From positions 1 to 32,994 of the forward strand of contig UYFQ01000559.1 in the NCBI GenBank assembly GCA_900617105.1: DNA of 32,994 nucleotides. The letters are read 5' to 3'. Positions 1-26,388 of the stretch are shown here, piece by piece. The stretch is from Hydrurus foetidus (Eukaryota). A model generated the notes under the pieces. It ran no database searches. It saw only the letters and a list, made by a program, of their open reading frames with translations, and was not told the DNA's origin. Positions within the stretch are counted from its first letter, which is position 1, and each line of letters opens with the position of its first letter. Position numbers and translations under genes: made by a program.

Positions 1-350
1 AAGGATGAAGGAAGTAATTCCACCAGCCAAAAGAAGTCGTTAGACTAATTTGGTGTCGGTAGCAATGAATCCAATGTTCAAATTGCTACCCGACGAGTTT
101 GAGAATGTCGAGTGGTGAAGGCTTTCGCGAATTCAACCAACTACGAACTTTGGAGACACCAATAATGGGTTCCAAGAGGAAAGAGGCTAAGCCCAACTTT
201 CGCTAACTTAAAACTAAGTTCTTGGAGCGTAGCTCAGCAAGAATTCGACTCCGCAGACGTCGTGAGTAATAATACTCAGGTGGTGGAAGTCGTAACTAAA
301 GTTAGGACGAGTAGAGGGGAATTAGAGGCAGCAGAAAATTTCCCGAGGAT

Positions 351-362
351 AATAGCGCTATT
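351..362. promoter_or_regulatory. 12-bp palindrome AATAGCGCTATT at the PBS position of element A
   Basis: Perfect palindrome that includes the terminal A of the LTR; no TGG-starting PBS. Confidence 0.8.
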
Positions 363-569
363 GTGGTCGGGCAAATGTAGAAAGGGGGGCGAGAGGAGGT
401 AGGCTTAGTTACAGATGTCTAGGCTAGAAGCTAGTTAACTTCTAAGTGGACGCTGCAGATGGCTACGACGATACTACAGCCTAACTGTAGTGTACAGTAG
501 TAGTACCCGGTAGGATCCGGTAGAGTCGGTACCCGGTAGGATCGGGACCCTGGGCCCGGTACTATCACA
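362..569 (-). repeat. 5' LTR of element A (208 bp, TG...CA)
   Basis: TG/CA termini, homology to the B LTR, repeated TACCGG(G) motifs near the U3 end. Confidence 0.8.
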
Positions 570-570
570 C

Positions 571-1160
571 TACCTTATATCGGGGCACTCTCACATGTGT
601 CCTGATCGTGTTGTATCTCACGTAAAAAGAAGTTTTGGAACAAACAATCTTTATTTGCCGTCCCATATGATTGATAAAATGAACACAGTAAAGTCTGTGA
701 CAGGAGAATTTATCGATCATAAAGATGCAAAACGGCCATTATTTTGTGATAAGTATTTTTAAATTGATAAGCATCTATACAAGTGTCATCGTAATTACTT
801 TCTTGTACATTTAAAATAGCATGGGAGAAAATACTAAAGAATCATATGGAAGCAATAAAAGGAATTGAAAAGGGCTATAGTAGGTATCATTTTATCGAAT
901 TTGCCAATGGAGAAGTGTCGATCCGTAACATCGTCACAGATGCGGTCAGACATGTTCACAAGTATTTTCCTTTCCATCTGTTGGAGTCGAAGAGAGCTGC
1001 GATACTTTCTGAAGTCATTGGAAATGGAGCGACTGCACACTGGTAGATGTGATACTGCAGCGGCATCCGGTATCGGAATTTCCGGCATAAAAAATAGAAA
1101 GTTTGAAAGAAAAATATTTCAGCATTCCCACAGAGTTTCTCAATTACTATCCTGTAGTAA
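571..1160 (+). pseudogene. Decayed C-terminal part of a DNA transposase-like gene (Sola-like motif pattern), with a probable intron at 749-819
   Basis: Manual translation gives YLISGHSHMCPDRVVSHVKR... (GHSxxxxD motif), then after the putative intron AWEKILKNHME...YHFIEFANGEV, and KIESLKEKYFSIPTEFLNYYP. It has a stop, a frameshift and a decayed donor (ATAAGT). Family assignment is from motif memory only. Confidence 0.45.
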
Positions 1161-1421
1161 ATAATGAAAATCTTACTAATAGAACACCATCTGAAAGATC
1201 CTCAATCCGAGCAAAAGAGGCCTTGGAAGGATTGAAGCGTAAAAGGGTCGAACGTCCGTTAATGGACAAAGAAGTCGAGGTAATTCTTTTTTATTGTGTT
1301 AAGAGTATCTTGAATTCCACAGGAACATTTTCACAGAATTATTACGTCTCATCAATTATGACAGGAAATTATCTCGAGTGGTAAAATAGGTAGAAAAAAG
1401 ATTATCGCGAAACCTTTACCA

Positions 1422-2254
1422 ATGTCAAAATCAATACTTAGATTTTTAAGCTTCAAAAGTCCGTCGACTGAATCGATAAAAAAAGAACCTATCAATAAAG
1501 AAAAGGAAAAAACAGATTGTCTAATGACACTGAAGCAAGTATTGGACAATGATTTCGATGACAAAATAAAACAATTTGGTAGTTCAAATGAATGTCTGAT
1601 AACACCGCAGCAAGTATTGGATAATGATTTCGATGACAAAATAAAACAATTTGGTAAGTCAAATGTATGTTCCCTGATACCACAAAAAGAGTCAAGAGCC
1701 CAAGAATACGTAGATGCTATGCTGTCAACGCATTTAATCAACAACAATATTATGGATGAGGTAGTTGCAGAAAATAAACAAATGTACGGACTCAAGTGGT
1801 TGGATTCATCCTGTTCCTTCGATACGAACTTAACTATACAGCTCATTTCTATACCTCTCTCTCAATTTCTGAAAAGGAGTTTTTCATGGAATCGATAATT
1901 TTATTAGGGAACATTTTCCAGAAATAGACATTACCTCAATGACATCACTAGCGGACGCCAAAGAAATACTAATACCATATTTTATGAATCGCGTCACGGA
2001 ACCTTTGTACTGCCCAAACAAGCACTTCTCATTGGAGAGTGTATATGATAATATAATGTTATCATTGATAAGTCCAAATGATATCATGGGAACAAATTAT
2101 AGTGTTCGAAGTCTCTGTACAAACAAGGACTGTGAGAGATATAATGCAAAAAAAGAAAGAAATGGCGAGAGGGTGGTCCACTCATATGAGAGTTGCTCTG
2201 TTTCAGATGGCAGGACCGATAATAATGTAAAATAGTTAATTGAATATTACTGGG
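1422..2254 (+). pseudogene. 5' half of a decayed USP/UCH-like cysteine protease gene, interrupted by element B
   Basis: Cys-box-like YGLKWLDSSCSFD (~1785-1823) and CTNKDC. The frame continues ...NVK*LIEYYW into the TGGG TSD and resumes after 17743. Confidence 0.55.
1517..1670 (+). repeat. 75-bp (25-aa) tandem duplication, 2 copies
   Basis: CLMTLKQVLDNDFDDKIKQFGSSNE / CLITPQQVLDNDFDDKIKQFGKSNV; GCAAGTATTGGA at 1535 and 1610. Confidence 0.9.
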
Positions 2255-2492
2255 TGTGGTCGTACCGGGTATACCGGGCCTACGAGCCGTACCGGGTATA
2301 CCGGGCCTGCGGGCCGTACCGGATCTAGTCACGATCCATCCGATCCGATCCTTCCGCCTACTGTACACTTACATCCTTGCATACTGCTAGCCAGCTGCAG
2401 CCGTCTCGTAGAAGTTAAACCTAGCTTCTAGCTTAGCCTCTGTAACTAACTAACACCTTTCCTACATCGACCTACCCTCCATCCGGACTACA
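2255..2492 (+). repeat. 5' LTR of element B (238 bp)
   Basis: Matches 17533-17743 apart from one extra 27-bp tandem unit and one C/G substitution. Confidence 0.95.
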
Positions 2493-2503
2493 ATAGCGCT
2501 ATT
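2492..2503. promoter_or_regulatory. 12-bp palindrome AATAGCGCTATT at the PBS position of element B
   Basis: Perfect palindrome starting at the LTR terminal A; identical to that of element A; no TGG. Confidence 0.85.
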
Positions 2504-3032
2504 CGTCCACTCCTTTCTCTTCTACCTCTTAGTCCCTCTACTCGTCCAACCTGTAGATAAGACCTCTAAGCAACTGCTCGTCGACTTGTAGCGATTGGCT
2601 CAGAGATTTGTAGTTTAAATCAGAGAAAGTCAGATGACCTTCTTTCTTGGAATCTCTGAGTTTGGGCTCTTTCATTCTTTGCATTTTCGGTGGAAGTTGA
2701 AAGATCCTTCCCGAAAATCATTGAAGACCTGTTCCGCTGGCTGTTTGAATCACAGATTCATCACCAGAGGCATCAGATTAGTCAAGAGACGTCTTTTGGT
2801 CGCTGAGGAACAGCGTCTTATACCTTTTCTGGTACCCATTTTTCTTACCACTCTAAATTTGGCTCTTACGCCATAGAACTTTTCAGGTCAAAAGTTGGTT
2901 AAAATTCTTTAACGCGTAGTTACTGACGTTACAGTACCCCTTTGCGAATAAGGCAAACCCCTTGAAAAAAACTTTTCGCTGAGGGTGATTGATCTCTGCT
3001 GTGTTTAAGCGAGATGTATATCTATTAACGAT

Positions 3033-4636
3033 ATGTCAGCTAATCCACCTTCTCCAGATCCACCTCGCGATGAGGAAGAGATTGCTCGTCAAGCAGCATT
3101 GGCTGCGCTCAACATTGTTTGGTAACAGCTCGCTGACGATGCAACTCCAGAGTGAGGTGTTCGTCTCAGGCACAACTTCATTGACGAAGCTGATGCCATT
3201 GAGTTCTACGAACAGGCTCAGAGAAATCCCGGCATGAAGCTGACCGATTGCATGCAGAAGCAGGCAATCGAACTATTGAACTTCAAAATCCTAGTCGACC
3301 CTGAATTCAACATCATCGATCGTCGGCTATGTCATGATTGGTTTACCATTCTGTCGGTGACTCAGGTAGCCACCCTGGTAGTTAAGTACTTCTGCCCAAA
3401 CGGTTTGGGGGAGTGTACGCTGATAGAGAGTTTTAGCCAAATTCCCCTCCACTACCAGATCGCTAACCACGATCATGAGAATGCCACATTCATTCGTTAC
3501 AATGAACTTGTGAGCAACTATGAGAGGTCCAAGGGCCCTCTGACTATGACTCAGCATGCTGAGCTTATTCAGATCTTGGAAAAGCGCCTAGCTAAGGGTA
3601 GTCAAATTCAACAACACTACCTGAGAGCAAAAGCAGCTGACACCTCATCACCTAACACGTGGACGTGGTTGAAGACTATGCTACGCATTGGTCAGGTTCT
3701 GGCTGAGGCTAGGTCAATGATGTACCTCATCAAGAGCTACGGCAACTCGGATGTGGTGTATTCGTTCCCTCCATCAGCCATTCCACCTGAGGTTGGTACG
3801 AAAGAGACAGGCAGAGCTAGTGTTAAAGCACCCTCTCCTACTCCATCCGTGACATCTAGACGACTGTGCGTACAACTGGCTCGTACATTCCGATCCAGCA
3901 TGGACTCGCCGTCCGTGCGTCGACGGAAGTGTCGTTCGTACCGAACTTGCTAGCGTGCTGCTCGTGCGGGTCTAAGTCGCACATGTTGGGTGAGTGCCCC
4001 ATTCGGTAACATTCAGACTCCAATACAAACCATTCGACTGATTGGGAGGATTCTACATTGGGGATGGCTTGGGCCGCGGTAGGGTTTACTGAATGGCAAC
4101 AACATCTCGTACTCCCCGGATACGAAGATCGCGTTCAGTATTTCCCCAGGGTTACGAAACCCTACATGATGGGTAACGACACCAAACGCGCCAAGAACAG
4201 CTGCGGTTCTCGTAACAACCCCAATGACTCAGATGGTTCAGACCGTTCCAACCAGGGACATAGGGGGAATAACCAGAACCAGGGTAACCAAGGTAACCAG
4301 GGAGGTGGTTACCAAGGTAACCAAGGAGGTGATAGAGGTAAGCAGAGGGGGGGATATAATCCCAATGCAAACCAAAATCAGGGTCGTGGGTCCGGTGGTA
4401 GGGGTAATCGTTACTACCCCCCACAGGGAAACTTCCCTCCTCCTTCTTCCTCTTCAGATCAGGATCAAGGTAAGAACCTTCATTTTGATGACATGGCTGC
4501 TATCTTTGATACTGATATCCATAATCTGATGGATGTTCATGTTGAAGAACAACCACATGTAATTATTCGTGAAGAATTCTTGCATAATCCGTCCATCTTT
4601 CCTTCTCACCACCTCAACGTAATTGTTATCGGGTAG
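3033..4636 (+). pseudogene. gag: Disrupted gag of element B
   Basis: ATG at 3033 is in frame with ORF 3234-3953, with stops at 3123 and 3153. After a frameshift comes a CX2CX4HX4C knuckle CCSCGSKSHMLGEC (3956-3997), a stop at 4007 and a G/N/Q-rich tail. Confidence 0.8.
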
Positions 4637-4674
4637 AATAAAGGAGGACAGGCTCAGCTAACGAGCTGCTTGCC

Positions 4675-7490
4675 GTGAGGAAAGCCGTGCTGGACACCGC
4701 AAACTACTCGGAGGATTTTATTTCTTTTACTATGTTAGAAAAACTTAGTGCTACTCATCTTTGTTATCCTGCTCTTCAAGCCATAACTGTTTGTAGCGGT
4801 CTTGATGGCCAATGCTATCTAAATAATGGAATTTGCGATTTGAAAATCTTATTTCACTCTTACGATGGCGAATGCCAAAGCATCAGCTTACCCATGAGAG
4901 TAAATCGAAAAACGGAAATTGATATTTTATTTAGCCGTAAAACGGTAAATAAATACGATTTCTGGTCTTTTACTCCTTTTGCCTTCGGCATTTCTCCAGA
5001 GCTTAGCGCTGAGAACAAAAATAAGAGTAATGCACGCAAACGTGACTTCGATAAGAAGGAAGCATTGGACAAGCTTGATCCAATGTATCAACATAAGTAC
5101 ACGCGTCGTATGATAGCGTTGGGTGCCGAACCTGATATAGCCGAAGTCGAGTCTACTACACCTCACTACGATAAGCTAAAGTATCCAGGCGGTAAACCAT
5201 CCTCTAAAAAGAGAGAAACATATGAATTACAAGAGTATCCGAATAGGAAGAGCGTATTGCATGGTCAATCTACTTCGAAGAGCAACGTCTCTTGTGTCCA
5301 TCCAATGTCGACATGTAACGATACCCAAATGGATATTGAAGGAGTAGCTACCCAAAATTCCTGTGGTGATGTAGATTGTGAGCGACTGAATAGTGTCACT
5401 CCTATTCTCGCAAAACGTACGGGTGATACACCGCACCTAGGTGGCGACCAGATTCCCACCCCTGCACATACCTTTGGGGACTCTGATACCCTAGACTATG
5501 TCACTGAGCCTTTATGGCCCAGTGGTGTCGCACCCTCAGTTGACGAGATTGACGATGGCAAAATAGACACGTTCGCCCACTTCTTGGCTGAGAAACTTAG
5601 TCAAGATGACTTGCCCAAGGGGCCAGAGGATTTCCTCAAGGAGATTACCTTTGAGGGAGATGAAAGCTTTCAAAGGAAGCTCCGAGAGCTCTGATCTGCA
5701 TATTCAGACATCTTTAGTGATCAGTTAGCTGAGAAACCAGCATCACTAAAACCTTTTGAGATCAACATTCTACTCGAGTTGTGGGAAATAGACGAAAACC
5801 GTACGCCGGTACGTCCCAAGTCATCAACAAAAGAGGCTGCTCTTAAGGAAAATCTCGATGAGATGCTTGCGTCGGGAGTTATAGAGCGATCAGATGCTGC
5901 TTATTACAGTCATCCTGTAATCGTAACTAAGTCGCCCGGTAAATTTCGAACCTGCATCGATTACCGGCCACTTAATAAGTGTCTGACTCCTGCCTCTTTT
6001 CCCCTGCCGAATATCAAACATCTTTTTGAGAGGATCGGTGACAAAAAACCGGATATTTTTGGTGTGATGGATTTAACCGCAGGTTACCATCAAGCACCGT
6101 TACACCGCTCACATCGCATTTTCACGGCATTCATATGCTTTGCGGGGTCTTTCAGTTTACGAGACTGCCCTTTGGGTCGTGTCGTGCCCCCTCTTACTTT
6201 CAAGAGCAGATGGTAACGGTGGTCCTCTATGGCCTTATCTATCATTGTTGCGAGATGTATCTCGACGATTGTATAGTATATGGCAAGGGTGAAGCGAAGT
6301 TTCTTACAAACTTGAAGAAAGTCTTTGAAAGATTCAGACTTAAAGGACTTAGACTCAAAGCCAAAAAATGCCGTTTCGGCCTGCCACGTATTGAATACGT
6401 GGGCAGAGTGGTTGACAAAGATGGTTTATCCATGTCAAAAGAAAAAATAAAAACAGTGCTTAACTTTTCTATACCTAAGAACTTGACCCTGTTAAGATCA
6501 TTCTTAGCACTTGCGAACTATTTCCGACAGTTTGTACCAGTGCATTCTACTTTGGTTAAACCAATGCAAGATATGATGGATCATTCTGCTCCGAAACATT
6601 CTGCCGTTGTATGGACTCCAGAGAGTACCAACAGCTTTCACGACACTCAGATTGCTATATCTAGATATCCATTGATGTACTTTATTGATGACGATAAGTT
6701 AGATGTACGGTTGTATACAGACGCGTCTGATTTTAGAATCGGCGGTGTCCTTTACCAAGTTGTTGATACCGTTCGGCAACCAATCGCTTTCATCAGCAAA
6801 TCATTGACACCAACACAAATAAGGTGGTCAACCTTACAGAAAGAAGCATATGCTATATTCTATTGTTGTACACAACTCGATTATCTAATCAGAGATCGTA
6901 CGTTCACAATCTATACGGATCATTTGAATATTACGTATATGAAACAAAATCCTACCTCGATGGTAGCGAGATGGTTTATTGCAATGCAAGACCTACATTC
7001 TACAGTGGTCTTTGTACCTGGTACGTCAAATGCTTTGGCGGATGCACTGTCTAGGCTATGTCCTAATTTGACAGAAATTGCATTACCGTTAAGAACACAA
7101 GAATTGGAATTACTTCCAACTTCTTCTTCGTCATTCACTGTATCAGCTCTGACGGCTATAGAGCCTGCGACAGACGAACAGTCAGAATATATTACTATGT
7201 GCCACAGTGCGTTTGTTGGTCACAACGGTTTAGACCGTACCCTTACTCGTTTGTTTAGTTTACAACAAGTTTGGAAAAACATGAAACAACATGTACGCAC
7301 GTTCATACGAAACTATCCGTGTTGCCAAAAGTTGAGTGCAACAGATCCTAATATCAATGCTTCTCACTTTGCAACGTCGAATTATGCTATCTTTGATACG
7401 CTCAATGTAGACTATGTTGGTCCATTCCTAGACAAAGGTTATATCCTTGTCATTATCGACACATTCGCACGATGGACTGAATTGTTCTGG
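4675..7490 (+). pseudogene. pol: Disrupted pol of element B (protease, RT, RNase H, N-terminal integrase)
   Basis: AVLDTA (PR), CIDYRPLN / DLTAGYHQ / YLDD (RT), TDASD / QKEA / TDH / ADALSR (RH), H..H..CC and NVDYVGP (IN). Stop at 5692, frameshift near 6145, cut by element C. Confidence 0.93.
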
Positions 7491-7714
7491 TGTGACCCGT
7501 ACACCGAGTATACCAGGTATACCGGGTTCGGGTACAAACGTACGCACGGTTCGGATCGAGGACGATCCGATCCATACGATTTGTTGCGTGATATCTGCTG
7601 TGCTTATCTGTAAGCTAATCACATTGCTATCCTTTAGCATCGTTCCCCAGCCATTTCACCTTTGCCCTCCGCCGTCCGGATTCCCGTTCCAGCCAAGGCC
7701 TCAGTGAGACCACA
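7491..7714 (+). repeat. 5' LTR of element C (224 bp)
   Basis: TGTGACC...GACCACA; direct repeat of 14664-14887. Confidence 0.97.
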
Positions 7715-7725
7715 GTAAGCTTACT
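7714..7725. promoter_or_regulatory. 12-bp palindrome AGTAAGCTTACT at the PBS position of element C
   Basis: Perfect palindrome starting at the LTR terminal A. Confidence 0.85.
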
Positions 7726-8274
7726 TGGAATCAGCTAGCCTTTCAAGACGAAAGCCGATTGCCAAATCAAGATTTCCCAAACCGCTACCCGACTCATTTT
7801 CGAAGCGAAAAGAGATTGTCAATAGCTTTCTGTAACAGAAACGTCTATTAGACTATATAGAGACTGATTCGCAAAGCGACAGCCTCTATCTCTTCGTCTT
7901 AACGAAGCTCGATCTCAGCGATTCCTCGCGAAATCAAGAAATCCCATCGAAAACTTTCGTCACACGAAAGCCGACACGCCAGTAGTAGCTTTCAGCATCG
8001 AAAGCGCTATTTAAGGACCCACTAGCAACGCTCCGTTCGTGGGATTGCTCACTCCGCAGGCCCCGCCGAGAAATTTCCTCCCGAAATTCTCGTCAATTTC
8101 CTCCCGAAATTGATCAAACCATTCCAATCCTCCTTTCTCTACTACTCCACTCTATACCTACCAGTCTTCACAAAAGTTCAACCTATCCTTCCTCTCCCTG
8201 AATTCACCGCGTCCGAGTTCCGTCGCGGTCCCTTCAATAAACTACCGACCATTATCGTAGCGAAGACGAAGACA

Positions 8275-11200
8275 ATGGAAGCTCAAGATATCCTCGACAA
8301 ATCAGCCTCCCCAGGAGCAAATACTACTTCCCTCGGCCTACCAGCCGCGACAATGCTTAGCATTCGCAAGGCACGAAAGGCCGAGGAGAAGATGAGAGCA
8401 GAAAACATTGCTCGGAGCAAATCTCTCATGGCCAGACAAGCCATAAAGGCCTCAGCCACCGCCACCCGCATTCCCGACGAGATTGCCGCCCGCAACTCCG
8501 AACGGTCTTCAGAACGTAAGCGTATTCAAGATGCTCAAAAGACATCAGACGCAACGACTGAAGACGAAGTGGCCATGATTGCATATGTCCTAGAGGCAAC
8601 GAACGAAGACGAGAGACGAGAACGCGAGATCTGCGCTCGATCTCGTCCGTGCTCTAGCACCTCAGTTGCAAAAACCATCGACGTAGAGGGAAGCCCAAAA
8701 GGCAGACCAAAACGAAGAAGAGGAGGCAACGAGAAAGACAAGAAAGCAAACGAACAAGATATCCTTGATGATGCTAAGTCAATCGAGAGTGAGCCCATCC
8801 CCGTCAGAAAATCATCTCGAACGACCAGGGTTCAAACCTCGATGGAGGTGGACTTAGAGTCGGGAGAGGACGAGGAGGATGAGGGCGACATCGAAAACGA
8901 CGACGAAATCAACGACAACGACGACGATAACGTGATAGTTGCGGAGTCAGTGTCGGATGAGGACGATCGATCGTCAGACGAGTCAGTGGAATCCACATCC
9001 CCTGAGAAGCGCAAGACTAAGTCTCCGCCAAAGCTAACAAAAAAGATTTCCACAAGAAAAAAGATTACCGTTCCACAAAAGACAAGAAAGGCAGAGCAGT
9101 CAAAAACTGCATCAGCAAAAGAGTCTAAGGAAGATGTGTCTAAAAAGACCATCCCTACTCAGAGGCCAAAACCGAAGACGTCTGCGGCGACAAGCGCCGC
9201 GTTGAAATTAAAAACAACAGAGGCTGCACGCAGACGCAAGGTGGAGGAAGATATCGACGATGAGCAGAGTGATACCTCAGTCTTATCAGACGAGAATTAC
9301 CAACAACAGCGTACACTCATCAATATGAATGAGGTATTCATGCTCAACGCCGAGAAACTCTTGACAGATGGTCCCGCTACCATCCAGGCATTCCACGATC
9401 AAGCCAACCTGCCCAATTTCAAAACACATTGGAAGCAGATCATTACCGAGAATGCCCTGGTACCTATAAGGTTCAGACTCAATGGAATGAAGGCAGTCCT
9501 GGGGTACACCCAACCTGAATGTTCCACTTGGCCAGTCATCCGCGGGGTCACCCTATCGATCCGACAAATCGCAAAGGACTTGACAGCCTGCTTCTCACAA
9601 GCAACTAGGACGTCCAACACGACCTACGATTGTAATGAGAAGATCAGAGCTTACAAGTTTGCTTACGACTTTGCTGACGCATATGTCGAAGAGGCATCGA
9701 TCACTCGGTTTGAGGAGATCATCAGCCTGTACTACCCTGATAGAACAGACCTCACACCCGAGCGCGAGAACGAAATCTGCAAAGCATTTTACAAAAAGCT
9801 TCCAGCAGAAAACGCACTCGGGATGAAATTCTTAGAGGCCACAAAGACAGCCATAAAGAAGACAAAAAGAGACACCATCCAAGACATGTACATGCGACTC
9901 AGCGACCACCTCAACATCGCACGTCAATGCGTCAACGACGCAGCGGAGTTGGGGAACAGCAGATACCGCTGGACCACTCCAGACAGCCCAACTTCCGAGG
10001 AGGCAAAAAGACAACGAAGCTCGTTGTCTAATGCATCATACTCCTCAAACCTGCACGCAGTGGGATTCCATCCAGAGGAGGACACACGCGCACCACCATA
10101 CAAGGCGATCGCAAAGCGTCAGCCAGAGGTACATCATTACCCCGGCCTTGACCGCAACACCAAGCTGTGCCACACCTGTGGGCGCAACGGGCACAACCGT
10201 TACAATTGCCGATTCCACATGAACGAGCATTGCAACAACTCGCACAAAATGTGGTCCGAATCCCTTATGGGACTCGAATGGAAACGGCTCGGTCACAAAC
10301 ATTTTGTAATCGATGCACATCTTCCATCGGGCGGAGTATCTCGGGAGCGAAAACAAATCCACGTCCCGACTAACTTCGAATTCCCCACGGATGAAGAGGA
10401 CATTGACATGGGTAACACCCAACAAAAGTCAAACCCTAGACAAGGTACCAGTGCACCACCATACAGCAAGGTTAAAAAGCCGGCGTACGACGACAGACGA
10501 AGAAGTGAGTTTTCAATACCACCTGTCAGTGTCGCAATTTTACCGCGTATCGACTTACCTCGAACACGAACATTACTTTCAGCAATACTACCTGAAAAAG
10601 TAAACGATTACTTACAAGTCAACATATCTCTCCCACAGATCAGTATGGCCCAAGACAAGACGAGCGCCCTCGCAAAGACGACCGCGCACAAGCAGACACC
10701 GACAACCGCGACCGCGACCGCCAACGCAACGAGCGAGAGGCCTTCGCGCGCGACAAGGCGAAAGAAAAGGAAGGATCCTCCAGCAGCTCCAACAAGCCCT
10801 ACTCCTCAAAGTAGAGGCATGGATGCACTGGCCCAGATCGATACGGGGTGCGAAGTCGGTGACGTCATTAACCGTAGAGTCCTCGAGGGCCTACGGGGCG
10901 AACACCGCTTACGCGACTCCGATTCACCTATGTGGATTTGTTCTGGTTTAGATAATAAGTGTATTGAATCCAAATCTGTGCTTGATATTGTTGTATCATT
11001 TAAAAAAGATTCTTTAAAATACATCTTTTCTCTTCCAGTCCGCATTGCCGAAGACTCTGAAATAGATTTAATTATAGGTATAAATACCATAAAAAATCTA
11101 AATTTAGTTAAAATTATGCCCGAATTTTTCGGCCATAAAAATCATACTGATCCATGGACCCGTATAGAAAATTCAATGGTACTAACCACGAATAATCTGC

Positions 11201-14200
11201 CGGACACAACTCCATCCACCGCGGTCCAAGAACCTCCAGTCAATAATGACTTGGACGGGGCAAAACCCTCCAACACAGACAACCTGAGGCAGGGTGACAT
11301 GGTGTCTGGAGGTGCTTGTACACACAAGAATTGCACATCGCCATATGGGTGTTCGCAGATTCGAGTAGCGGCCGCTACCGACCCTGTTCAAGACGGGTCC
11401 GTCTTGCAAGTATGTGAGAAGTCAACAACCCACTTGACTTCTCCTCGACAAGATGGTTTAGAGCTCACGCTCGACAGAGAAAAGGAAGTAGCTATCCAAA
11501 TCTCCCCTTCCATAACTCCACCCCAAACATATGGCTTTGTCGCGGCTCTACTTAGGGAGAAGGAATATCTCCCTGAGGCTCAACCTTTCGGTCCGGAAGA
11601 AATTGACTACAAGTCAAAGGACACATTCGCTCCTTTTATGCTCTCAACGCACACATCCACGGATATCATAGACCTCATTCACATTGAAGGTACTCATGAG
11701 GAAATTGCACGGATTCGAGAAATATGTGTAAAACACATAGTCCTGTTCAAAAATGAACTTGGACCAGAACCGGCAAGAATACCACCATTTGATCTTCCCG
11801 TAATGGAGAAACAATGGAAGGTTCCCAAAAACAGACATGCATCACGCATACAGTCTACAAAAAGACAAACAGTTATACGAGAGCTAGTGACAACTATGCT
11901 CAAAGGTGGTATAATAGTAAAGTCAAATGCATCGCATTATTCTCAAGTAATCCTGGCACCCAAACCGGATGGTACCTTCCGATTTTGTATTGATTACCGT
12001 GGACTCAATGAAGCTACGGAATCTGCAAGTTGGCCAATACCAAATATAAGACTCATGTTAGGACGTCTTGGAGCTGCAAAAGCAGATACCTTTGGTGTAA
12101 TTGACCTCACAGCAGGCTACCACCAGGCACCAATAACGATGAGCACAAGAATTTATACAGCCTTCATTACATTCATGGGCATATATCACTTTACGAGACT
12201 TCCGTTTGGACCTAAACGCGCGCCATCATATTTTCAAGAAATGATGGCGTCAATAGTCTTAATAGGTCTTATCTACTTCATTTGTGAGGTGTACCTTGAC
12301 GACATCATAGTGTACGCAACAGGTCACTTACAATTCTGTGAACGATTGGAAATAATATTTCAACGTTTAGAAGAGAAGAATATTTCACTTAAAGCAGCTA
12401 AGTTAAAACTTGGTATGAAGAAAGTGGAATATGTCGGTAAAGAAATATCGAAGGATGGTATAACTATGAGTTCCAAAAAGATAAAAGGCGTGACCGACTT
12501 TCCGATGCCAAGAAAGACGACAGAAATGAGGTCGTTTCTCGGACTCACGAATTATTTTAGGGATCATGTACCGAACCACTCAAACGTAGTTGCTCCTCTA
12601 CAAAAGATGATCCTGCACGCATCCAAAAAGCAAACATTGCTAATATGGACCGACGAAGCAGCCGATGCATTCTATATGATTAAGCAACGTATTGCAGAGA
12701 GTCCCTTGCTATATTTCATACACGATACAGCCCCAATAACCTTAATGACTGATGCGTCAGATTACGGTATTGGAGGTTACTTGTATCAGGAAGTCGACGA
12801 GAAGAAACAACTCGTCGCTCTCGTAAGTAAGTCTCTTACCAAGACACAACTGAAGTGGTCGACAATACAAAAAGAAGCCTTCGCGCTCTATTATTGTTGT
12901 ACTTACCTCGACGCACTACTACGGGATCGTAAATTTACAATTCTCACGGACCATAAAAATCTTACCTTTATTGAAAAAGATAAAAATGAAATGGTTGGCA
13001 GATGGCGAGTCGCCCTGCAAGAATTGGATTATACGATAGGCTACGTACCAGGTAGAGAAAACGACATTGCAGACGCGATGTCACGCCTATGTTTAAACAG
13101 AATGGAAAAGAAATCCGGACTAATGTCATCACTACATGAAAAACAATTAACGACAAATGAGCAATATGAACTCATTGGAAGTTGTCACAACGCAACGGTC
13201 GGACATGGTGGTGTACAACGTACGTTACGGAACTTAAAAACAAAGAAGAAGGTGTGGCCGGGCATGAAAGAAGCAGTAAAAACTTTCATTAAAAATTGCC
13301 CTTGTTGCCAAAAGATGTCTGCAGTAAAAATACCAGTCAATTCTTACACTTATACTACTTCAACATACAAACCAATGGAATGTCTCAACATAGATTTCAT
13401 TGGACCATTTCCTGATAAAGGATACATTTTAGTCATGATTGACACATTTACACGATTCGTCGAACTATATGCAACAAAAGATGCAACCGCTAAGGCGGCA
13501 TGCACGGCATTAGTGGAACACGTCGGACGATACGGATCTCCAAGATTCCTTAGATCTGACAACGGTCCTCACTTTGCCAACCACGTTATTGAAGAATTTA
13601 CAAAACTCGCAGGCACAGTCCACGAGAAAATTCTCGCCTATTCTTCGGAACACAATTCAATTGTAGAAAGAATGAATAAGGAAGTTAACAGGCACATTCG
13701 AGCATATACGTATGACAGAGCAACAACAGAAAATTACCAAGAAATTCTACCATTTGTTCAACGTATATTAAATACAACAATTAATGATAGAACAAAAATT
13801 TCACCGGCACAAATCCTTTATGGAAATGCCATTAATATGGATGAAGGAATTTTAATCCCAAGAGGAGAAGTTAACCTCATACCAGAAAACATAACAATTT
13901 CATCTACAAATATGATAAAGATACAAAGTGATCTTATTCGAATTGCGGCAAGACTCCTTAAGGAATCTGATGATGAACACAATGAGAAACAAAACCCAGA
14001 AATAACACATTTCGAGGTAGGCTCATATGTACTCGTTACTCAACGCACACAGCCAGAGACACGCATGCACACATTGTGGCGCGGTCCTCTTCGAGTTCTA
14101 AGCAATAAGAAAGGAGAATATACGCTACTCAATCTTATTACTCTTAAGAATGTTAAATACCACATGTCACAATTAAAAACTTTCTTATTTAATCCACTGC

Positions 14201-14451
14201 ACACTGATCCAACAGATGTAGCACGTCGAGATTATTTAGAATTCTTCATCGAAGAGATCATAGATATGAGGGGAAATATTTCATCTTATGGAGCTTTAGA
14301 ATTTGAGGTCAAATGGCTCAATTATCCCTCAGAAAGTAATACCTGGGAACCGTGGCGAAGTCTAAGAAAAACAGACAAACTACACAATTTTCTTATAAGT
14401 AAGAATCTACGTCACCTAATTCCAAGAGAATTCAGGTTAGACTACGTCTAA
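8275..14451 (+). CDS. gag-pol: Gag-Pol polyprotein (Gag with CCHC knuckle, aspartic protease, RT, RNase H, integrase, chromodomain), ~2058 aa from the first ATG
   Basis: CHTCGRNGHNRYNC, AQIDTG, CIDYRGLN, YLDD, TDASDYGIG, TDHKNL, H..H..CPCC, DFIGP / SDNG / VERMN (DDE), WRGP, FEVKWLNYPSESNTWEP. The ORF track opens at TTG 8110; the first in-frame ATG is 8275. Confidence 0.96.
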   Translation: MEAQDILDKSASPGANTTSLGLPAATMLSIRKARKAEEKMRAENIARSKSLMARQAIKASATATRIPDEIAARNSERSSERKRIQDAQKTSDATTEDEVAMIAYVLEATNEDERREREICARSRPCSSTSVAKTIDVEGSPKGRPKRRRGGNEKDKKANEQDILDDAKSIESEPIPVRKSSRTTRVQTSMEVDLESGEDEEDEGDIENDDEINDNDDDNVIVAESVSDEDDRSSDESVESTSPEKRKTKSPPKLTKKISTRKKITVPQKTRKAEQSKTASAKESKEDVSKKTIPTQRPKPKTSAATSAALKLKTTEAARRRKVEEDIDDEQSDTSVLSDENYQQQRTLINMNEVFMLNAEKLLTDGPATIQAFHDQANLPNFKTHWKQIITENALVPIRFRLNGMKAVLGYTQPECSTWPVIRGVTLSIRQIAKDLTACFSQATRTSNTTYDCNEKIRAYKFAYDFADAYVEEASITRFEEIISLYYPDRTDLTPERENEICKAFYKKLPAENALGMKFLEATKTAIKKTKRDTIQDMYMRLSDHLNIARQCVNDAAELGNSRYRWTTPDSPTSEEAKRQRSSLSNASYSSNLHAVGFHPEEDTRAPPYKAIAKRQPEVHHYPGLDRNTKLCHTCGRNGHNRYNCRFHMNEHCNNSHKMWSESLMGLEWKRLGHKHFVIDAHLPSGGVSRERKQIHVPTNFEFPTDEEDIDMGNTQQKSNPRQGTSAPPYSKVKKPAYDDRRRSEFSIPPVSVAILPRIDLPRTRTLLSAILPEKVNDYLQVNISLPQISMAQDKTSALAKTTAHKQTPTTATATANATSERPSRATRRKKRKDPPAAPTSPTPQSRGMDALAQIDTGCEVGDVINRRVLEGLRGEHRLRDSDSPMWICSGLDNKCIESKSVLDIVVSFKKDSLKYIFSLPVRIAEDSEIDLIIGINTIKNLNLVKIMPEFFGHKNHTDPWTRIENSMVLTTNNLPDTTPSTAVQEPPVNNDLDGAKPSNTDNLRQGDMVSGGACTHKNCTSPYGCSQIRVAAATDPVQDGSVLQVCEKSTTHLTSPRQDGLELTLDREKEVAIQISPSITPPQTYGFVAALLREKEYLPEAQPFGPEEIDYKSKDTFAPFMLSTHTSTDIIDLIHIEGTHEEIARIREICVKHIVLFKNELGPEPARIPPFDLPVMEKQWKVPKNRHASRIQSTKRQTVIRELVTTMLKGGIIVKSNASHYSQVILAPKPDGTFRFCIDYRGLNEATESASWPIPNIRLMLGRLGAAKADTFGVIDLTAGYHQAPITMSTRIYTAFITFMGIYHFTRLPFGPKRAPSYFQEMMASIVLIGLIYFICEVYLDDIIVYATGHLQFCERLEIIFQRLEEKNISLKAAKLKLGMKKVEYVGKEISKDGITMSSKKIKGVTDFPMPRKTTEMRSFLGLTNYFRDHVPNHSNVVAPLQKMILHASKKQTLLIWTDEAADAFYMIKQRIAESPLLYFIHDTAPITLMTDASDYGIGGYLYQEVDEKKQLVALVSKSLTKTQLKWSTIQKEAFALYYCCTYLDALLRDRKFTILTDHKNLTFIEKDKNEMVGRWRVALQELDYTIGYVPGRENDIADAMSRLCLNRMEKKSGLMSSLHEKQLTTNEQYELIGSCHNATVGHGGVQRTLRNLKTKKKVWPGMKEAVKTFIKNCPCCQKMSAVKIPVNSYTYTTSTYKPMECLNIDFIGPFPDKGYILVMIDTFTRFVELYATKDATAKAACTALVEHVGRYGSPRFLRSDNGPHFANHVIEEFTKLAGTVHEKILAYSSEHNSIVERMNKEVNRHIRAYTYDRATTENYQEILPFVQRILNTTINDRTKISPAQILYGNAINMDEGILIPRGEVNLIPENITISSTNMIKIQSDLIRIAARLLKESDDEHNEKQNPEITHFEVGSYVLVTQRTQPETRMHTLWRGPLRVLSNKKGEYTLLNLITLKNVKYHMSQLKTFLFNPLHTDPTDVARRDYLEFFIEEIIDMRGNISSYGALEFEVKWLNYPSESNTWEPWRSLRKTDKLHNFLISKNLRHLIPREFRLDYV

Positions 14452-14650
14452 AAGACACAAAGGAGAACAACAATATCATTGATGATTCCCCCATTTTTTT
14501 GCGTCTCATCCGAGATGTTTTAGGAGGTTTAGTCAGTAGGCAATAATTTTTTTACTATTATTATTGAGTCTGACATAATTGTTGTTACTTAACATAGACT
14601 TACACGTAGTTTAGTATTTATCATAGAGTAACAAATCTAGCTTCTTCTTC

Positions 14651-14660
14651 GAGGAGGGGG
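14651..14660 (+). other. Polypurine tract of element C
   Basis: GAGGAGGGGG, 3 nt before the 3' LTR. Confidence 0.9.
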
Positions 14661-14663
14661 CAC

Positions 14664-14887
14664 TGTGACCCGTACACCGAGTATACCGGGTATACCGGGT
14701 TCGGGTACAAACGTACGCACGGTTCGGATCGAGGACGATCCGATCCATACGATTTGTTGCGTGATATCTGCTGTGCTTATCTGTAAGCTAATCACATTGC
14801 TATCCTTTAGCATCGTTCCCCAGCCATTTCACCTTTGCCCTCCGCCGTCCGGATTCCCGTTCCAGCCAAGGCCTCAGTGAGACCACA
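14664..14887 (+). repeat. 3' LTR of element C
   Basis: Direct repeat of 7491-7714, followed by the CTGG TSD. Confidence 0.97.
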
Positions 14888-14891
14888 CTGG

Positions 14892-15834
14892 TGTGTGCAA
14901 ATGCTGACGCTAAATCGGCAGCCGATTGCTTGCTTTCTCATTTTGGTCGATTTGGATCGCCAAATATGATAAGATCGGATCGAGGATCCCATTTCGTAAA
15001 GGGTTTGATCAAAGATTTTTTAGATCTTTGTGGTACACCACATAACTTAACCCTCTTATACTCAAAATAAGAGAATGAGATTGTTGAAAGAGTTAACAAA
15101 GAGGTAAACAAACACTTAAGAGGTCTCGTTTTTGATAAACAGACTCTAGAAGGATATGCTAAGTCAATCCCGTTTGTGCAACACATCATTAACAGTTCAG
15201 TTAATGGACACACTAAAGTTGCTCCCGCTCATTTATTACTCGACTTGAATCGTGGTATTCTAACACCACACTTAAGTGTGAATACACATTCGAGATCGAC
15301 ATACATTGAAGACTTGATCAGTGTGCAAGACAAGATCCTTGATTCAGCTGTTTAAGCTTTAATGACAGCAGATGCTAAACACGCGGCATCAGCTAAGTGT
15401 GCGACAGTGTTCCCTATTGGGACATATGTTTTATGTCGTTACACGGATCGACCACCAACTCGTTTACACACTACATGGCATGGCCCGTACCGTGTTATCT
15501 CTTATAAGGGGTCCGAGTATGTCCTTGCAAACCTTGTGACTTACAAAGAACGAAGTGTTCATGTCAAAAATTTAAAAATTTTCAATTATGACTCAGAGGT
15601 AGATGTACCTGCTGACACTGCTCGCCATGATTACATGGAATTTGTAGTTGAGAAGGTACTTAAACACACCGGTGATACAAAGAAACCAACAGCGATGTCA
15701 TTCCACGTGAAATGGCTTAACTATGATGATAGTCATAACTCATGGGAGCCGTAAAAAAACCTACGGCTTTGTGAAGCACTCCATGATTATTTAAGGGACA
15801 ATAAAATGAAGCATTTTATCCCCAAAAACCTTAA
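14892..15834 (+). pseudogene. pol: Remainder of element B pol (integrase core, GPY motif, chromodomain); last codons at 17144-17156
   Basis: CANADAKSAADCLLSHFGRFGSP..SDRGSHF..IVERVNKEVN, WHGPYRV, FHVKWLNYDDSHNSWEP. Aligns with the integrase of C. Stops at 15068, 15353 and 15752. Confidence 0.92.
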
Positions 15835-17139
15835 TGTCTACACTCCAGTTGTTTGTCCGACCGGTGGACATGGGCACTGTCCGACTGGTCGGACAGTGCT
15901 GACATATGACATTTTTGACTCCTTACATCATCTTATAGCTTAGAAATCGATTGCAATTAGTTGCCTAGCATTAAATTGACATGCTTGATGATATTGGAGC
16001 CTTTGGTCGAACAGAAAAAAACTAGTTATAGTCAAATAATATGTTTAATACGTTCTTTTAGTGCTCATACAGGACACTGATATATCAAACTTTTAGGAGC
16101 AAAAAAGGATTATACAACTGCAAGAACCATTGAAGAAGGGTCGAGTAGGTAAGATGCCATGAAGGCGACATCAAGGGCTGATAATATCATTTGTTTGAAG
16201 ACAGGTGGAGTACGCAGGAAAATCGACTCAATAAAAATATTGAGGGATACCCAAAACAGAGACTTTACACCAATATGCAATATCAAAACGATGATTCATA
16301 ACATATTTGATGCTCTGGAACGATACAAGTGACTGCATCGGAGAGATTCGCTTGAAATAGCCGTCCGAGGTGGAAATCTGAAATCGGTCCGAAATCGGTC
16401 GATGGGGCAAACGCTGACAGCTATAACTTCACTACAAAAGTGGCGCTTCCTCAGGCATCGATGGGAAACTGTTGAGGAAGTCCTGATCAATAGAAGCTTG
16501 AAAATTTCCTAGTCAGAATGGGCGTTGCTCGGAAATTATCAGGCTGCATTTCCTTGTGAAAATCGATTTGCATTTTAGATTGCAATCCTCACCATATTCC
16601 AATCGCTCCGCTATTACACCAATATTCCGTGATCTCCTTTTGGCGTTTGAACTTGATCATCATTTATGACACAAAATAATATGATCTGCAGGCACAGAAG
16701 TGAAGAAATTTCAGAGAAAATTTTGACAGAAGATTTCAGCCACAAATCGCCAAACCAAAGGAGCAATCAGCTATTGCGCTGTCGCCACATAACCAAAATT
16801 CGAGGCGATTGACTTTACCGGAGGGGAAACTGTTCATTGCACTCTGGCCAAACAGTCGACGTCGAAAATGATTCCAACACCTTAGAGATTCGCTTGGAAG
16901 TTAGACCATCGCCAAATTTGGCGAACCAGCGAGTTGATCCACTGCCCCAGTCCATATCTCAGCAAAGAAGTCTCCGTTTGAAGAGGTGAAGTTATGCCTT
17001 TGATCGGCACATTTGGAGCTATCGAATTCGCCGAGATACTGCTTCAAACTCATCGAATTGAGGAATATTTCATATGGGTAAAAATTGTCCGACCGGTCGG
17101 ACAAATGTCCTACCGGGTGGACGGCCTGGAGGATAGACA
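15835..17139. mobile_element. 1305-bp non-autonomous TIR DNA transposon inserted at TTAA
   Basis: TTAA-TGTCTACACTCCAG ... CTGGAGGATAGACA-TTAA. Removing it restores the pol end IPKNLKASV*. Subterminal TGTCCGACCGGTCGGACA-type palindromes at both ends; no long ORF. Confidence 0.88.
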
Positions 17140-17508
17140 TTAAGGCATCAGTCTAAGAAGACTGATCTCGAACGTATTATCTTTTGAAGATTTTGCCTAA
17201 TTTTCCCCTGATGGAGGTTTTATGGTTTTAGTCAGTAAGAATCTGACATAATTACGTATCGAGGCCTCGTGCACATGTATTTATGTACTAGGCACCCACC
17301 TCATCTCTTTGACCGACCCACCACGTTGTCTATTTTGTATAGATTTTTATTAGACTTTTATTTTATTTTTGTTCTATTTAAATTTGAGTTTTTCATTTTC
17401 GTAATCTCATCTTTCCGTTTTAATCTTTCTCTTCCATCTCTGTAGTTATCATTAGTTATATATATTTGTACAAAAATGTGGTGGTTGCATCATAGATTAG
17501 TTTTCTTC

Positions 17509-17532
17509 AGAAAAAGAGATAAGTGGAGGAAA
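17509..17532 (+). other. Polypurine tract of element B
   Basis: AGAAAAAGAGATAAGTGGAGGAAA directly before the 3' LTR. Confidence 0.8.
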
Positions 17533-17743
17533 TGTGGTCGTACCGGGTATACCGGGCCTGCGGGCCGTACCGGATCTAGTCACGATCCATCCGATCCGAT
17601 CCTTCCGCCTACTGTACACTTACATCCTTGCATACTGCTAGCCAGCTGCAGCCGTCTCGTAGAAGTTAAACCTAGCTTCTAGCTTAGCCTCTGTAACTAA
17701 CTAACACCTTTCCTACATCGACCTACCCTCCATCGGGACTACA
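17533..17743 (+). repeat. 3' LTR of element B (211 bp)
   Basis: TGTGGTCG...GGACTACA followed by the TGGG TSD. Confidence 0.95.
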
Positions 17744-17747
17744 TGGG

Positions 17748-18095
17748 CTAGAAAGTACACATTTGTCGTATTTGCGAGAAGGAGTTAGAAGTGACAAGAA
17801 TATTTAGGGAGGTGAATCCCTTACTAATAACTGTTAGCTTTAATCTTATGGATACAACAATTGGCCCTATGATAAACTCTAACGAATCAAACTATTATAT
17901 ATTTGCAGTAGCTTACACAAATCAGACACATTTCTAAGCTCAAATTCAATTGACACATGGTGTCTAAGAGTATGATGGAATATAATCATTGGGCTCTCTT
18001 CAAGAAATAGAAGCAAATGATCCTTTTCAAAGCAAAATAAAAAAGCTGTCAAATAAAAATTACAAAGCCCAAATGGTTTGGTACAAAAAGAAAAA
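17748..18095 (+). pseudogene. 3' half of the decayed USP/UCH-like cysteine protease gene
   Basis: Frame of 17764 reads CRICEKELEVTRIFREVNPLLITVSFN...YYIFAVAYTNQTHF*AQIQLTHGV*EYDGI, and a later segment reads AQMVWYKRK. This fits the USP His-box / YDG / C-terminal Y-x-R pattern. Confidence 0.55.
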
Positions 18096-18337
18096 TTAAT
18101 TTTCACGTGATGCAAAAAACAACACTGCTTATATTACTAAATATACATGTTCTACTTATCAAATGTAATATCAATAGGAAACAGTTAACAACTTCATAGA
18201 ATTTTGTTTCATTGAAGATGTTGTCAGAGCAACAGCATTCAAGCAGTATGTGCAATGTCGCATTGAAACACTTCAGCTGGATAAATAATCATACAACCTC
18301 GCAGTTATAAATAATTAATCGAGATGATATTTAATTA

Positions 18338-21300
18338 CGTTAACGGCTTGTATCGTGTACTCCATAAGTGTACAAACAGTATTCGCAATGTTGCTTATGA
18401 TAACTCTTCGTGGTTGAATAGATACACAACTTCGCAGGTACACAGTACTGCTATTTAAGTCATAATACTGTATTTGATAATGTATTAGATCAAATTAGAC
18501 GTTTAAATATCGTTGACGGCTTGTATTGTGTACTCCATAAGTGTACAAACAGTATTCGCAATGTTGCTTATGATAACTCTTCGTGGTTGAATACATACAC
18601 AACTTCGCAGGTACACAGTACTGCTATTTAAGTCATAATACTGTATATGATAATGTATTAGATCAAATTAGACGTTTAAATATCGTTGACGGCTTGTATT
18701 GTGTACTCCATAAGTGTACAAACAGTATTCGCAATGTTGCTTATGATAACTCTTCGTGGTTGAATAGATACACAACTTCGCAGGTACACAGTACTGCTAT
18801 TTAAGTCATAATACTGTATATGATAATGTATTAGATCAAATTAGACGTTTAAATATCGTTGACGGCTTGTATTGTGTACTCCATAAGTGTACAAACAGTA
18901 TTCGCAATGTTGCTTATGATAACTCTTCGTGGTTGAATAGATACACAACTTCGCAGGTACACAGTACTGCTATTTAAGTCATAATACTGTATATGATAAT
19001 GTATTAGATCAAATTAGACGTTTAAATATCGTTGACGGCTTGTATTGTGTACTCCATAAGTGTACAAACAGTATTCGCAATGTTGCTTATGATAACTCTT
19101 CGTGGTTGAATAGATACACAACTTCGCAGGTACACAGTACTGCTATTTAAGTCATAATACTGTATATGATAATGTATTAGATCAAATTAGACGTTTAAAT
19201 ATCGTTGACGGCTTGTATTGTGTACTCCATAAGTGTACAAACAGTATTCGCAATGTTGCTTATGATAACTCTTCGTGGTTGAATAGATACACAACTTCGC
19301 AGGTACACAGTACTGCTATTTAAGTCATAATACTGTATATAATAATGTATTAGATCAAATTAGACGTTTAAATATCGTTGACGGCTTGTATTGTGTACTC
19401 CATAAGTGTACAAACAGTATTCGCAATGTTGCTTATGATAACTCTTCGTGGTTGAATAGATACACAACTTCGCAGGTACACAGTACTGCTATTTAAGTCA
19501 TAATACTGTATATGATAATGTATTAGATCAAATTAGACGTTTAAATATCGTTGACGGCTTGTATTGTGTACTCCATAAGTGTACAAACAGTATTCGCAAT
19601 GTTGCTTATGATAACTCTTCGTGGTTGAATAGATACACAACTTCGCAGGTACACAGTACTGCTATTTAAGTCATAATACTGTATATGATAATGTATTAGA
19701 TCAAATTAGACGTTTAAATATCGTTGACGGCTTGTATTGTGTACTCCATAAGTGTACAAACAGTATTCGCAATGTTGCTTATGATAACTCTTCGTGGTTG
19801 AATAGATACACAACTTCGCAGGTACACAGTACTGCTATTTAAGTCATAATACTGTATATGATAATGTATTAGATCAAATTAGACGTTTAAATATCGTTGA
19901 CGGCTTGTATTGTGTACTCCATAAGTGTACAAACAGTATTCGCAATGTTGCTTATGATAACTCTTCGTGGTTGAATAGATACACAACTTCGCAGGTACAC
20001 AGTACTGCTATTTAAGTCATAATACTGTATATGATAATGTATTAGATCAAATTAGACGTTTAAATATCGTTGACGGCTTGTATTGTGTACTCCATAAGTG
20101 TACAAACAGTATTCGCAATGTTGCTTATGATAACTCTTCGTGGTTGAATAGATACACAACTTCGCAGGTACACAGTACTGCTATTTAAGTCATAATACTG
20201 TATATGATAATGTATTAGATCAAATTAGACGTTTAAATATCGTTGACGGCTTGTATTGTGTACTCCATAAGTGTACAAACAGTATTCGCAATGTTGCTTA
20301 TGATAACTCTTCGTGGTTGAATAGATACACAACTTCGCAGGTACACAGTACTGCTATTTAAGTCATAATACTGTATATAATAATGTATTAGATCAAATTA
20401 GACGTTTAAATATCGTTGACGGCTTGTATTGTGTACTCCATAAGTGTACAAACAGTATTCGCAATGTTGCTTATGATAACTCTTCGTGGTTGAATAGATA
20501 CACAACTTCGCAGGTACACAGTACTGCTATTTAAGTCATAATACTGTATATGATAATGTATTAGATCAAATTAGACGTTTAAATATCGTTGACGGCTTGT
20601 ATTGTGTACTCCATAAGTGTACAAACAGTATTCGCAATGTTGCTTATGATAACTCTTCGTGGTTGAATAGATACACAACTTCGCAGGTACACAGTACTGC
20701 TATTTAAGTCATAATACTGTATATGATAATGTATTAGATCAAATTAGACGTTTAAATATCGTTGACGGCTTGTATTGTGTACTCCATAAGTGTACAAACA
20801 GTATTCGCAATGTTGCTTATGATAACTCTTCGTGGTTGAATAGATACACAACTTCGCAGGTACACAGTACTGCTATTTAAGTCATAATACTGTATATAAT
20901 AATGTATTAGATCAAATTAGACGTTTAAATATCGTTGACGGCTTGTATTGTGTACTCCATAAGTGTACAAACAGTATTCGCAATGTTGCTTATGATAACT
21001 CTTCGTGGTTGAATAGATACACAACTTCGCAGGTACACAGTACTGCTATTTAAGTCATAATACTGTATATGATAATGTATTAGATCAAATTAGACGTTTA
21101 AATATCGTTGACGGCTTGTATTGTGTACTCCATAAGTGTACAAACAGTATTCGCAATGTTGCTTATGATAACTCTTCGTGGTTGAATAGATACACAACTT
21201 CGCAGGTACACAGTACTGCTATTTAAGTCATAATACTGTATATGATAATGTATTAGATCAAATTAGACGTTTAAATATCGTTGACGGCTTGTATTGTGTA

Positions 21301-22029
21301 CTCCATAAGTGTACAAACAGTATTCGCAATGTTGCTTATGATAACTCTTCGTGGTTGAATAGATACACAACTTCGCAGGTACACAGTACTGCTATTTAAG
21401 TCATAATACTGTATATAATAATGTATTAGATCAAATTAGACGTTTAAATATCGTTGACGGCTTGTATTGTGTACTCCATAAGTGTACAAACAGTATTCGC
21501 AATGTTGCTTATGATAACTCTTCGTGGTTGAATAGATACACAACTTCGCAGGTACACAGTACTGCTATTTAAGTCATAATACTGTATATGATAATGTATT
21601 AGATCAAATTAGACGTTTAAATATCGTTGACGGCTTGTATTGTGTACTCCATAAGTGTACAAACAGTATTCGCAATGTTGCTTATGATAACTCTTCGTGG
21701 TTGAATAGATACACAACTTCGCAGGTACACAGTACTGCTATTTAAGTCATAATACTGTATATGATAATGTATTAGATCAAATTAGACGTTTAAATATCGT
21801 TGACGGCTTGTATTGTGTACTCCATAAGTGTACAAACAGTATTCGCAATGTTGCTTATGATAACTCTTCGTGGTTGAATAGATACACAACTTCGCAGGTA
21901 CACAGTACTGCTATTTAAGTCATAATACTGTATATGATAATGTATTAGATCAAATTAGACGTTTAAATATCGTTGACGGCTTGTATTGTGTACTCCACAA
22001 GTGTACAAACAGTTTTCGCAATGTCGCTT
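18338..22029. repeat. Satellite array, 173-bp monomer, 21 full near-identical copies plus partial ends
   Basis: TCCATAAG recurs at 18361, 18534, 18707 and so on, with the variant TCCACAAG at 21994 (3633/173 = 21). Confidence 0.98.
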
Positions 22030-23740: not shown

Positions 23741-23932
23741 GGCCATAAATCACGGGAACGATAGAATTTTTTCACGGTTTTAAATTCATTCTATTGCTTT
23801 CCGTTTTCGGATGCCCGTTTTTTACGATAGAATCCAGAATCTTTCGTAAAAAATGTACGAAAGATAGAATTAATTGAAAATTGTGAAAAATTTCTATCGT
23901 AAAATATTATATCGTTCCCGTCAATTGTGGCC
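23741..23932. mobile_element. 192-bp MITE (Harbinger/Tourist-like)
   Basis: Imperfect ~30-bp TIRs GGCCATAAATCACGGGAACGATA / TATCGTTCCCGTCAATTGTGGCC, 3-bp TSD TCA (23738-23740 / 23933-23935), internal (AC)GATAGAAT repeats. Confidence 0.85.

Positions 23933-26349: not shown

Positions 26350-26388
<39 letters not shown>

Follow-up and report, generated by a model that had tools for sequence, protein, structure and literature searches.

A self-complementary site occupies the primer-binding position in a clade of chromodomain Ty3/Gypsy retrotransposons and may let packaged genomes prime each other

Introduction

The closest described counterpart of the site reported here is the Conserved Hairpin Site of the fungal GalEa Ty1/Copia elements, a 10-bp palindrome that includes the terminal A of the LTR and replaces the primer-binding site (PBS) (Donnart et al. 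2017, PMC5445492). Its two main sequences differ by one compensatory pair, a bulge is predicted at the LTR junction, and a likeness to the retroviral dimer-initiation site (DIS) was raised in the same report. GalEa elements have a 5-bp target site duplication (TSD), most families carry an inverse-complement partner sequence, CHSeq2, downstream, and the available portion of the report contains no priming model.

Among Ty3/Gypsy elements, the Tf1/sushi group (Tf1, Tf2, Tj1, and Tosmo) combines a chromodomain with priming that uses no tRNA (PMC4600332, PMC11042837). The PBS of Tf1 begins right after the CA of the LTR, with ATAAC (PMC11042837), and its priming depends on a structure of three duplexes, the central one being the primer duplex (bioRxiv 2022.12.06.519325). 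The primer is the 5′ end of the transcript acting in cis, and the PBS is non-palindromic. Hairpin-loop palindromes able to pair two RNAs are found in the retroviral DIS and in the primer tRNA of Ty3 (PMC5445492, PMC5371799), but, as far as the accessible parts of these papers go, they act beside a tRNA PBS. Dictyostelid Skipper chromoviruses are chromodomain Gypsy elements with neither a PBS nor an LTR self-primer, for which an unknown priming mode was proposed; the consulted part of that report describes a polypyrimidine tract and no palindrome (PMC5006619). In plants, no PBS was detected in 6% of elements (PMC6317226). The priming of LTR elements without a tRNA site, as in GalEa, Skipper, and these plant elements, is a wider puzzle.

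Here we describe chromodomain Gypsy elements in which a palindrome that includes the final A of the LTR takes the PBS position itself. The terminal-A palindrome is shared with GalEa, but the Ty1/Copia domain order is absent, a CHSeq2-like partner was found at 0 of 37 sites, and the clade differs in its palindrome of 12 (in some sites 14) bp, 4-bp TSD, 19 site sequences, and symmetric flank stems. With Tf1 it shares the chromodomain, the absence of a site for a tRNA 3′ end, and a site that starts with ATA directly after CA, and its predicted three-duplex dimer would be an analogue of the Tf1 structure. It differs in that the LTR holds no complement of the site; a second RNA is predicted to supply the primer, in the form of its own copy of the site. 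In the literature outside subscription journals and Repbase reports, we found no palindromic primer site in Gypsy elements and no partner-priming model; the word 'palindrom' is absent from the accessible text of Kojima 2024 (PMC10886601), and the available parts of PMC6934838 and PMC7472051 hold merely citing or unrelated uses. A terminal-A palindrome replacing the PBS is already in print for Copia; the Gypsy site would add a further form of priming without tRNA, and there is a fair chance that its mechanism is distinct.

Results

Elements and palindromes in the window

The window is the whole 32,994-nt stretch of Hydrurus foetidus DNA analyzed here (contig UYFQ01000559.1, assembly GCA_900617105.1). 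Element C, on the forward strand, is an intact chromodomain Ty3/Gypsy element nested in the integrase of the decayed element B. Its 224-bp 5′ LTR (TG...CA, 7491-7714) was delimited by comparison of the LTR pair; its ends are confirmed by contigs of other samples, which depart from the window sequence ahead of 7491 and past 7714. The 3′ LTR (14664-14887) differs from it at one position and is followed by the TSD CTGG, which flanks the element; element C is apparently young. Its single gag-pol ORF of 2141 codons (8026-14451) contains a zinc knuckle, DTG, a reverse transcriptase (RT) with YLDD, RNase H, integrase, and a chromodomain, and a polypurine tract (PPT) lies at 14651-14660. The Pfam order is RT-RNase H-integrase, with the chromodomain (PF00385, at 2075-2122 of the ORF) at the integrase C-terminus, and the best solved relative is the RT of Ty3 (E 4e-65).

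Element B, on the same strand, has a 5′ LTR at 2255-2492 that holds a 27-bp tandem duplication, the first part of a decayed gag-pol at 3156-7490, where C interrupts it, and a 3′ LTR at 17533-17743; the LTR stretches 2288-2492 and 17539-17743 show one difference, and the TSD TGGG flanks the element. B and C are 49% identical across RT-RH-IN. Element A is represented in the window by a single LTR on the reverse strand (362-569). It is 71% identical to B over 185 nt spanning the 3′ half of the LTR, the site, and the leader, and its LTR end was placed by this identity because the window holds no second A LTR.

Several LTR junctions lie inside the integrase core of related elements (window 7491; L033:5323; L022:1-169), a possible nesting preference. 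The LTR 5′ ends (2255-2330, 7491-7560, and 500-569) abound in short palindromes, ACCGGGTATACCGG and CGTACG among them, as do those of relatives, and the long 3′ non-coding region of B contains a 20-bp perfect palindrome (17085-17104) with related imperfect copies upstream, at about 15853-15897. The remainder of the window carries a 173-bp satellite (18330-22029, 21.4 copies, 99% matches), 6-8 tandem units of about 1,045 bp (about 23500-31150), each with GTGTG and TGACT microsatellites and without an Rfam match, and, on the reverse strand, a ribosomal L27 gene with an N-terminal extension (31629-32081), whose product is probably organelle-targeted.

The sequence-only reading had placed a perfect 12-bp palindrome on the terminal A of the 5′ LTR in all three elements. 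These palindromes, AATAGCGCTATT at 351-362 in A (reverse strand) and at 2492-2503 in B and AGTAAGCTTACT at 7714-7725 in C (both forward strand), are indeed perfect and maximal at 12 bp. In B and C the first A of the palindrome is also the last base of the LTR repeat, and the same start follows for A from its identity with B; in C the site consists of the LTR terminal A and an 11-nt putative PBS (7715-7725). The low chance of palindromy stated for a fixed 12-mer also stands, at an expected value of about 2.6e-4 per site; palindromic 12-mers start at 13 of 18,289 positions in 1-18300, a rate of 7e-4. A is a relative of B with an identical palindrome, which leaves the window by itself with two independent sequences rather than three.

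Conservation and covariation among relatives

A protein search gave 865 relatives, and an alignment of 58 of them, used as a further query, gave 52 metagenome loci (from the best 80 of 417 matches) and 19 loci on contigs of metagenome-assembled genomes (MAGs). The relatives come from freshwater or sediment samples, plus one coded organism; none was found among the viral contigs scanned. Loci L053-L070 are chromovirus pol contigs assigned to bacterial MAGs (Paceibacterota, Saccharibacteria, and others); two of them carry a palindromic site, and they are most likely eukaryotic contamination. Many loci were too short to reach the 5′ LTR. Forty-four sites, 3 from the window and 41 from other loci, were picked by palindromy; removal of near-duplicates left 38, which represent 21 RT families at 80% Pol identity; the tree built covers these relatives only. 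A further LTR copy with a different flank bears out the LTR ends of C, L004, L005, L020, L030, and L032, and also those of B. The LTR ends in TA instead of CA at 8 of the 38 non-redundant sites (L006, L008-L012, L014, L015, L034, L050, L001). In collapsed contigs, a number of sites follow pol and could be those of a tandem neighbor, as is the case for L016.

The proposed check on relatives was to test palindromy and covariation of the site after the 5′ LTR; in this set, chosen by palindromy, the site covaries across the 21 RT families. The 38 sites comprise 17 distinct 12-mers and two 14-mers, and their register is fixed on the LTR terminal A in 38/38. The five inner pairs (2-6) are Watson-Crick in all 36 12-mers, with no G-U, in this set chosen by palindromy; the outer pair, A1-N12, is the sole pair that breaks, in 4/36. 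Among the 17 distinct sequences, the two inner pairs were intact in all 34 cases, while shuffling gave a mean of 10.2 and a maximum of 23, again for the ascertained set. The AATA start is kept in most sites. Self-complementarity rather than sequence is conserved, as had been suggested: of the 16 palindromic tetramers that could stand at the center, 12 occur in the set. Pairs 5-8 and 6-7, at loop positions, covary as well, which is more than a lone hairpin requires.

Because the main set was chosen by palindromy, we devised a second test that ignored the right half of the site. The PPT set the LTR start, a profile of the left side built without the element's own family set the LTR end, and rows were kept when gag followed. 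Five or six of the six pairs were found in 15 of 18 rows; in the background this held for 11 of 2130 windows. The misses could be explained post hoc: L037 has a palindromic site but an LTR of 169 nt, just short of the cut-off, and the other two rows are false PPT hits within gag. In the 22 rows without a following gag, a 12-bp site occurred three times and a 14-bp site once; the others were 3′ LTRs or false starts. With a stricter PPT pattern, 16 of 20 rows had at least 5/6 pairs, and the four misses were at contig ends without a leader. The self-complementary site in the PBS position is a real, clade-wide feature.

L017 and L020, whose Pol is 99.4% identical and whose flanks are 93-97% identical, have sites that differ by one exact compensatory pair. 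A second candidate for such a close pair, L016 and L018, was dropped, the L016 site belonging to a second element downstream. In the C family, no site variant was listed at 1% depth in four runs, though the LTR shows many, and the contigs compared drop rare variants.

Known primer types

The absence of a site for a tRNA 3′ end, claimed for the window, extends to the relatives: TGG was found within 0-5 nt of the 5′ LTR at 0 of 38 sites, and within the window there was no tRNA and no Rfam match. The same applies to the ordinary Tf1-type self-primer. Using the 10-nt threshold of PMC6317226, an LTR complement to the site of at least 10 nt was found at 0 of 36 sites (mean 5.6, compared with 5.8 in shuffles); LTR matches reached 7 nt in C (p 0.04), 8 nt in L002, and 9 nt in L006. 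A GalEa-type downstream partner at 8/9 or better was found at 0 of 37 sites (mean 5.6, against 5.7 for comparison).

The sequence-only reading had set two caveats against element C, a TGG just downstream of the palindrome and the partial LTR match GTAAGCT (7610-7616). Both are real and both can be accounted for. GTAAGCT overlaps TGTAAGCT (7609-7616, forward strand), a TGTAA-type motif present in the LTRs of 21 of 38 elements whatever the palindrome, which can pair with part of the C site in monomer folds. UGUAA is an algal poly(A) signal. The TGG is predicted to pair with CCA of U5 in a flank stem, with a bulged C.

RNA folding

Predicted folds bear out the proposal that two RNAs could pair through the site, the 12-mer folding solely as a two-strand duplex. 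The isolated hairpin had a minimum free energy of 0.0 for 18 of 19 sequences, and self-duplexes ranged from -6.2 to -15.5 kcal/mol; AU-rich duplexes were weak, at -5.3 to -6.5 kcal/mol in the 11-bp form. With flanks, the predicted dimer was better than two monomers in 37/37, as is expected of any palindrome. In monomer folds, element C favors pairing of the site with LTR 7609-7617 (probability about 0.55), and A and B form a stem-loop with a self-complementary loop, with an in-context hairpin probability of about 0.65-0.75.

The U5 end and the leader start are predicted to extend the pairing around the site. The mean pairing energy was -4.0, compared with -2.6 when flanks were permuted among elements (p 5e-5; p at most 7e-4 with one element per family), and 28 of 37 elements had values better than their own swapped-flank mean; the stems are short and their register varies. 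Predicted extended stems are CCCGA/TCGGG in A (342-371, reverse strand), GGAC/GTCC flanking the palindrome in B (2485-2508, forward strand), and, by cofolding, AGTGA and CCA of the U5 end with TGG, TCA, and CT of the leader in C (7703-7736, forward strand), with C7713 bulged. Diverged relatives match C only at about 7702-7744, roughly the predicted stem span.

The duplex energies of the sites, -14.9 for A with B and -3.3 with C, agree with the expectation that A and B are cross-compatible and C is not. The strict family specificity also proposed did not hold: AATATTAATATT is present in five different RT families, and L017 and L020 differ, so that specificity is partial. A pairing code of this kind would be small and is shared across families.

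Discussion

On balance, and with modest confidence, we favor a reading in which this chromodomain Ty3/Gypsy clade uses the self-complementary site instead of a tRNA site, its own RNA serving as primer within a dimer. The sequence by itself would be compatible with priming, with pure dimerization, or with a requirement of second strand transfer.

In the favored scheme, each RNA is predicted to form a weak hairpin with a 4-bp stem, a self-complementary 4-nt loop, a bulged LTR base, and a lower U5:leader stem. Two such hairpins would convert into a dimer held by three duplexes, one formed by the site and one by each flank stem, a predicted two-molecule version of the three-duplex 'pretzel' of Tf1. 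RNase H of the RT would cut one RNA between positions 11 and 12, leaving its A1-N11 end paired with the 11 nt that follow the LTR in the partner (positions 2-12), and DNA synthesis would begin by copying the LTR terminal A. The uncut RNA would retain the site for the second strand transfer. The Tf1 primer has a length of 11 nt, with the cut at 11/12, and is reportedly made by an RNase H cut of an RNA duplex.

A nick at the 3′ side of the palindrome had been proposed in the sequence-only reading; we retain the nick and move it to between positions 11 and 12, since the outer pair is broken in 4/36. A cut at this place would account for a palindrome that begins on the LTR A, is 12 bp long, and tolerates a mismatch at the outer pair alone, whereas a cut after 12 is disfavored as it would place outer mismatches at the primer 3′ end. 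The plus strand would copy the primer in reverse, so that a single change would give mismatches at i and 13-i, and the two-mismatch heteroduplex may resolve to a new perfect palindrome. Such re-symmetrizing fits the absence of G-U and the L017/L020 pair.

The alternative with most in its favor, which we nevertheless consider unlikely, is that the palindrome is a dimer-initiation or packaging signal alone and another, unseen primer is used. The monomer folds of A and B resemble the retroviral DIS, a likeness raised in the GalEa report (PMC5445492), and Ty3 couples dimerization to a 12-nt palindrome in its primer tRNA (PMC5371799). However, a retroviral DIS exists in addition to a PBS, whereas here the register is fixed on the terminal A and no TGG lies within 0-5 nt in 38/38 sites, and RNA pairing alone would accept G-U, of which none was found.

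Slightly less likely again is snap-back in cis, in which the cut RNA folds on itself to prime and full palindromy serves a later step, the second strand transfer, whose target is a copy of the partner RNA. This would likewise demand perfect Watson-Crick symmetry, and the hairpin does form in context in A and B; but the cut removes the lower stem and leaves 3-4 mostly A-U pairs, and 18 of 19 isolated hairpins were unfolded. We regard as improbable a Tf1-like second transcript that starts on the LTR terminal A and provides its first 11 nt as primer. It would have the identical 11-bp geometry and a short capped primer of the length familiar from Tf1, but a start at the LTR end is unsupported and the flank-stem excess is accounted for without it.

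Priming by a host tRNA, half-tRNA, or other cellular RNA, or a role of the palindrome as the DNA site of a dimeric protein, is very improbable: half-tRNA priming does yield non-TGG sites in Copia (PMC6317226, PMC10886601), and the kept AATA start could be read in this way, but it would take a separate palindromic RNA for each of the 17 symmetric 12-mers, with their 12 central tetramers, or else a protein indifferent to sequence. Ordinary Tf1 self-priming, with the transcript 5′ end in the LTR as primer, or use of a GalEa-type downstream copy, is largely refuted by the counts given above, the 7-9-nt LTR matches of C, L002, and L006 notwithstanding.

Taken further, priming by a partner genome might be a third way of starting LTR reverse transcription, beside tRNA priming and self-priming in cis, in which packaged genomes prime each other via a palindrome re-symmetrized by replication, priming requires dimerization, and the pairing code changes fast. 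Gypsy and Copia would then have acquired it separately, and it would account for the GalEa site. We give this wider proposal an even chance. With an intact element, 19 natural variants of the site, and a cut predicted at a precise position, the clade makes partner priming directly testable. If it is true, such elements will be overlooked or misclassified by LTR finders in which a PBS is required, the diploidy of the packaged genome would be tied to priming, and the elements would be freed from the host tRNA and from silencing by tRNA fragments.
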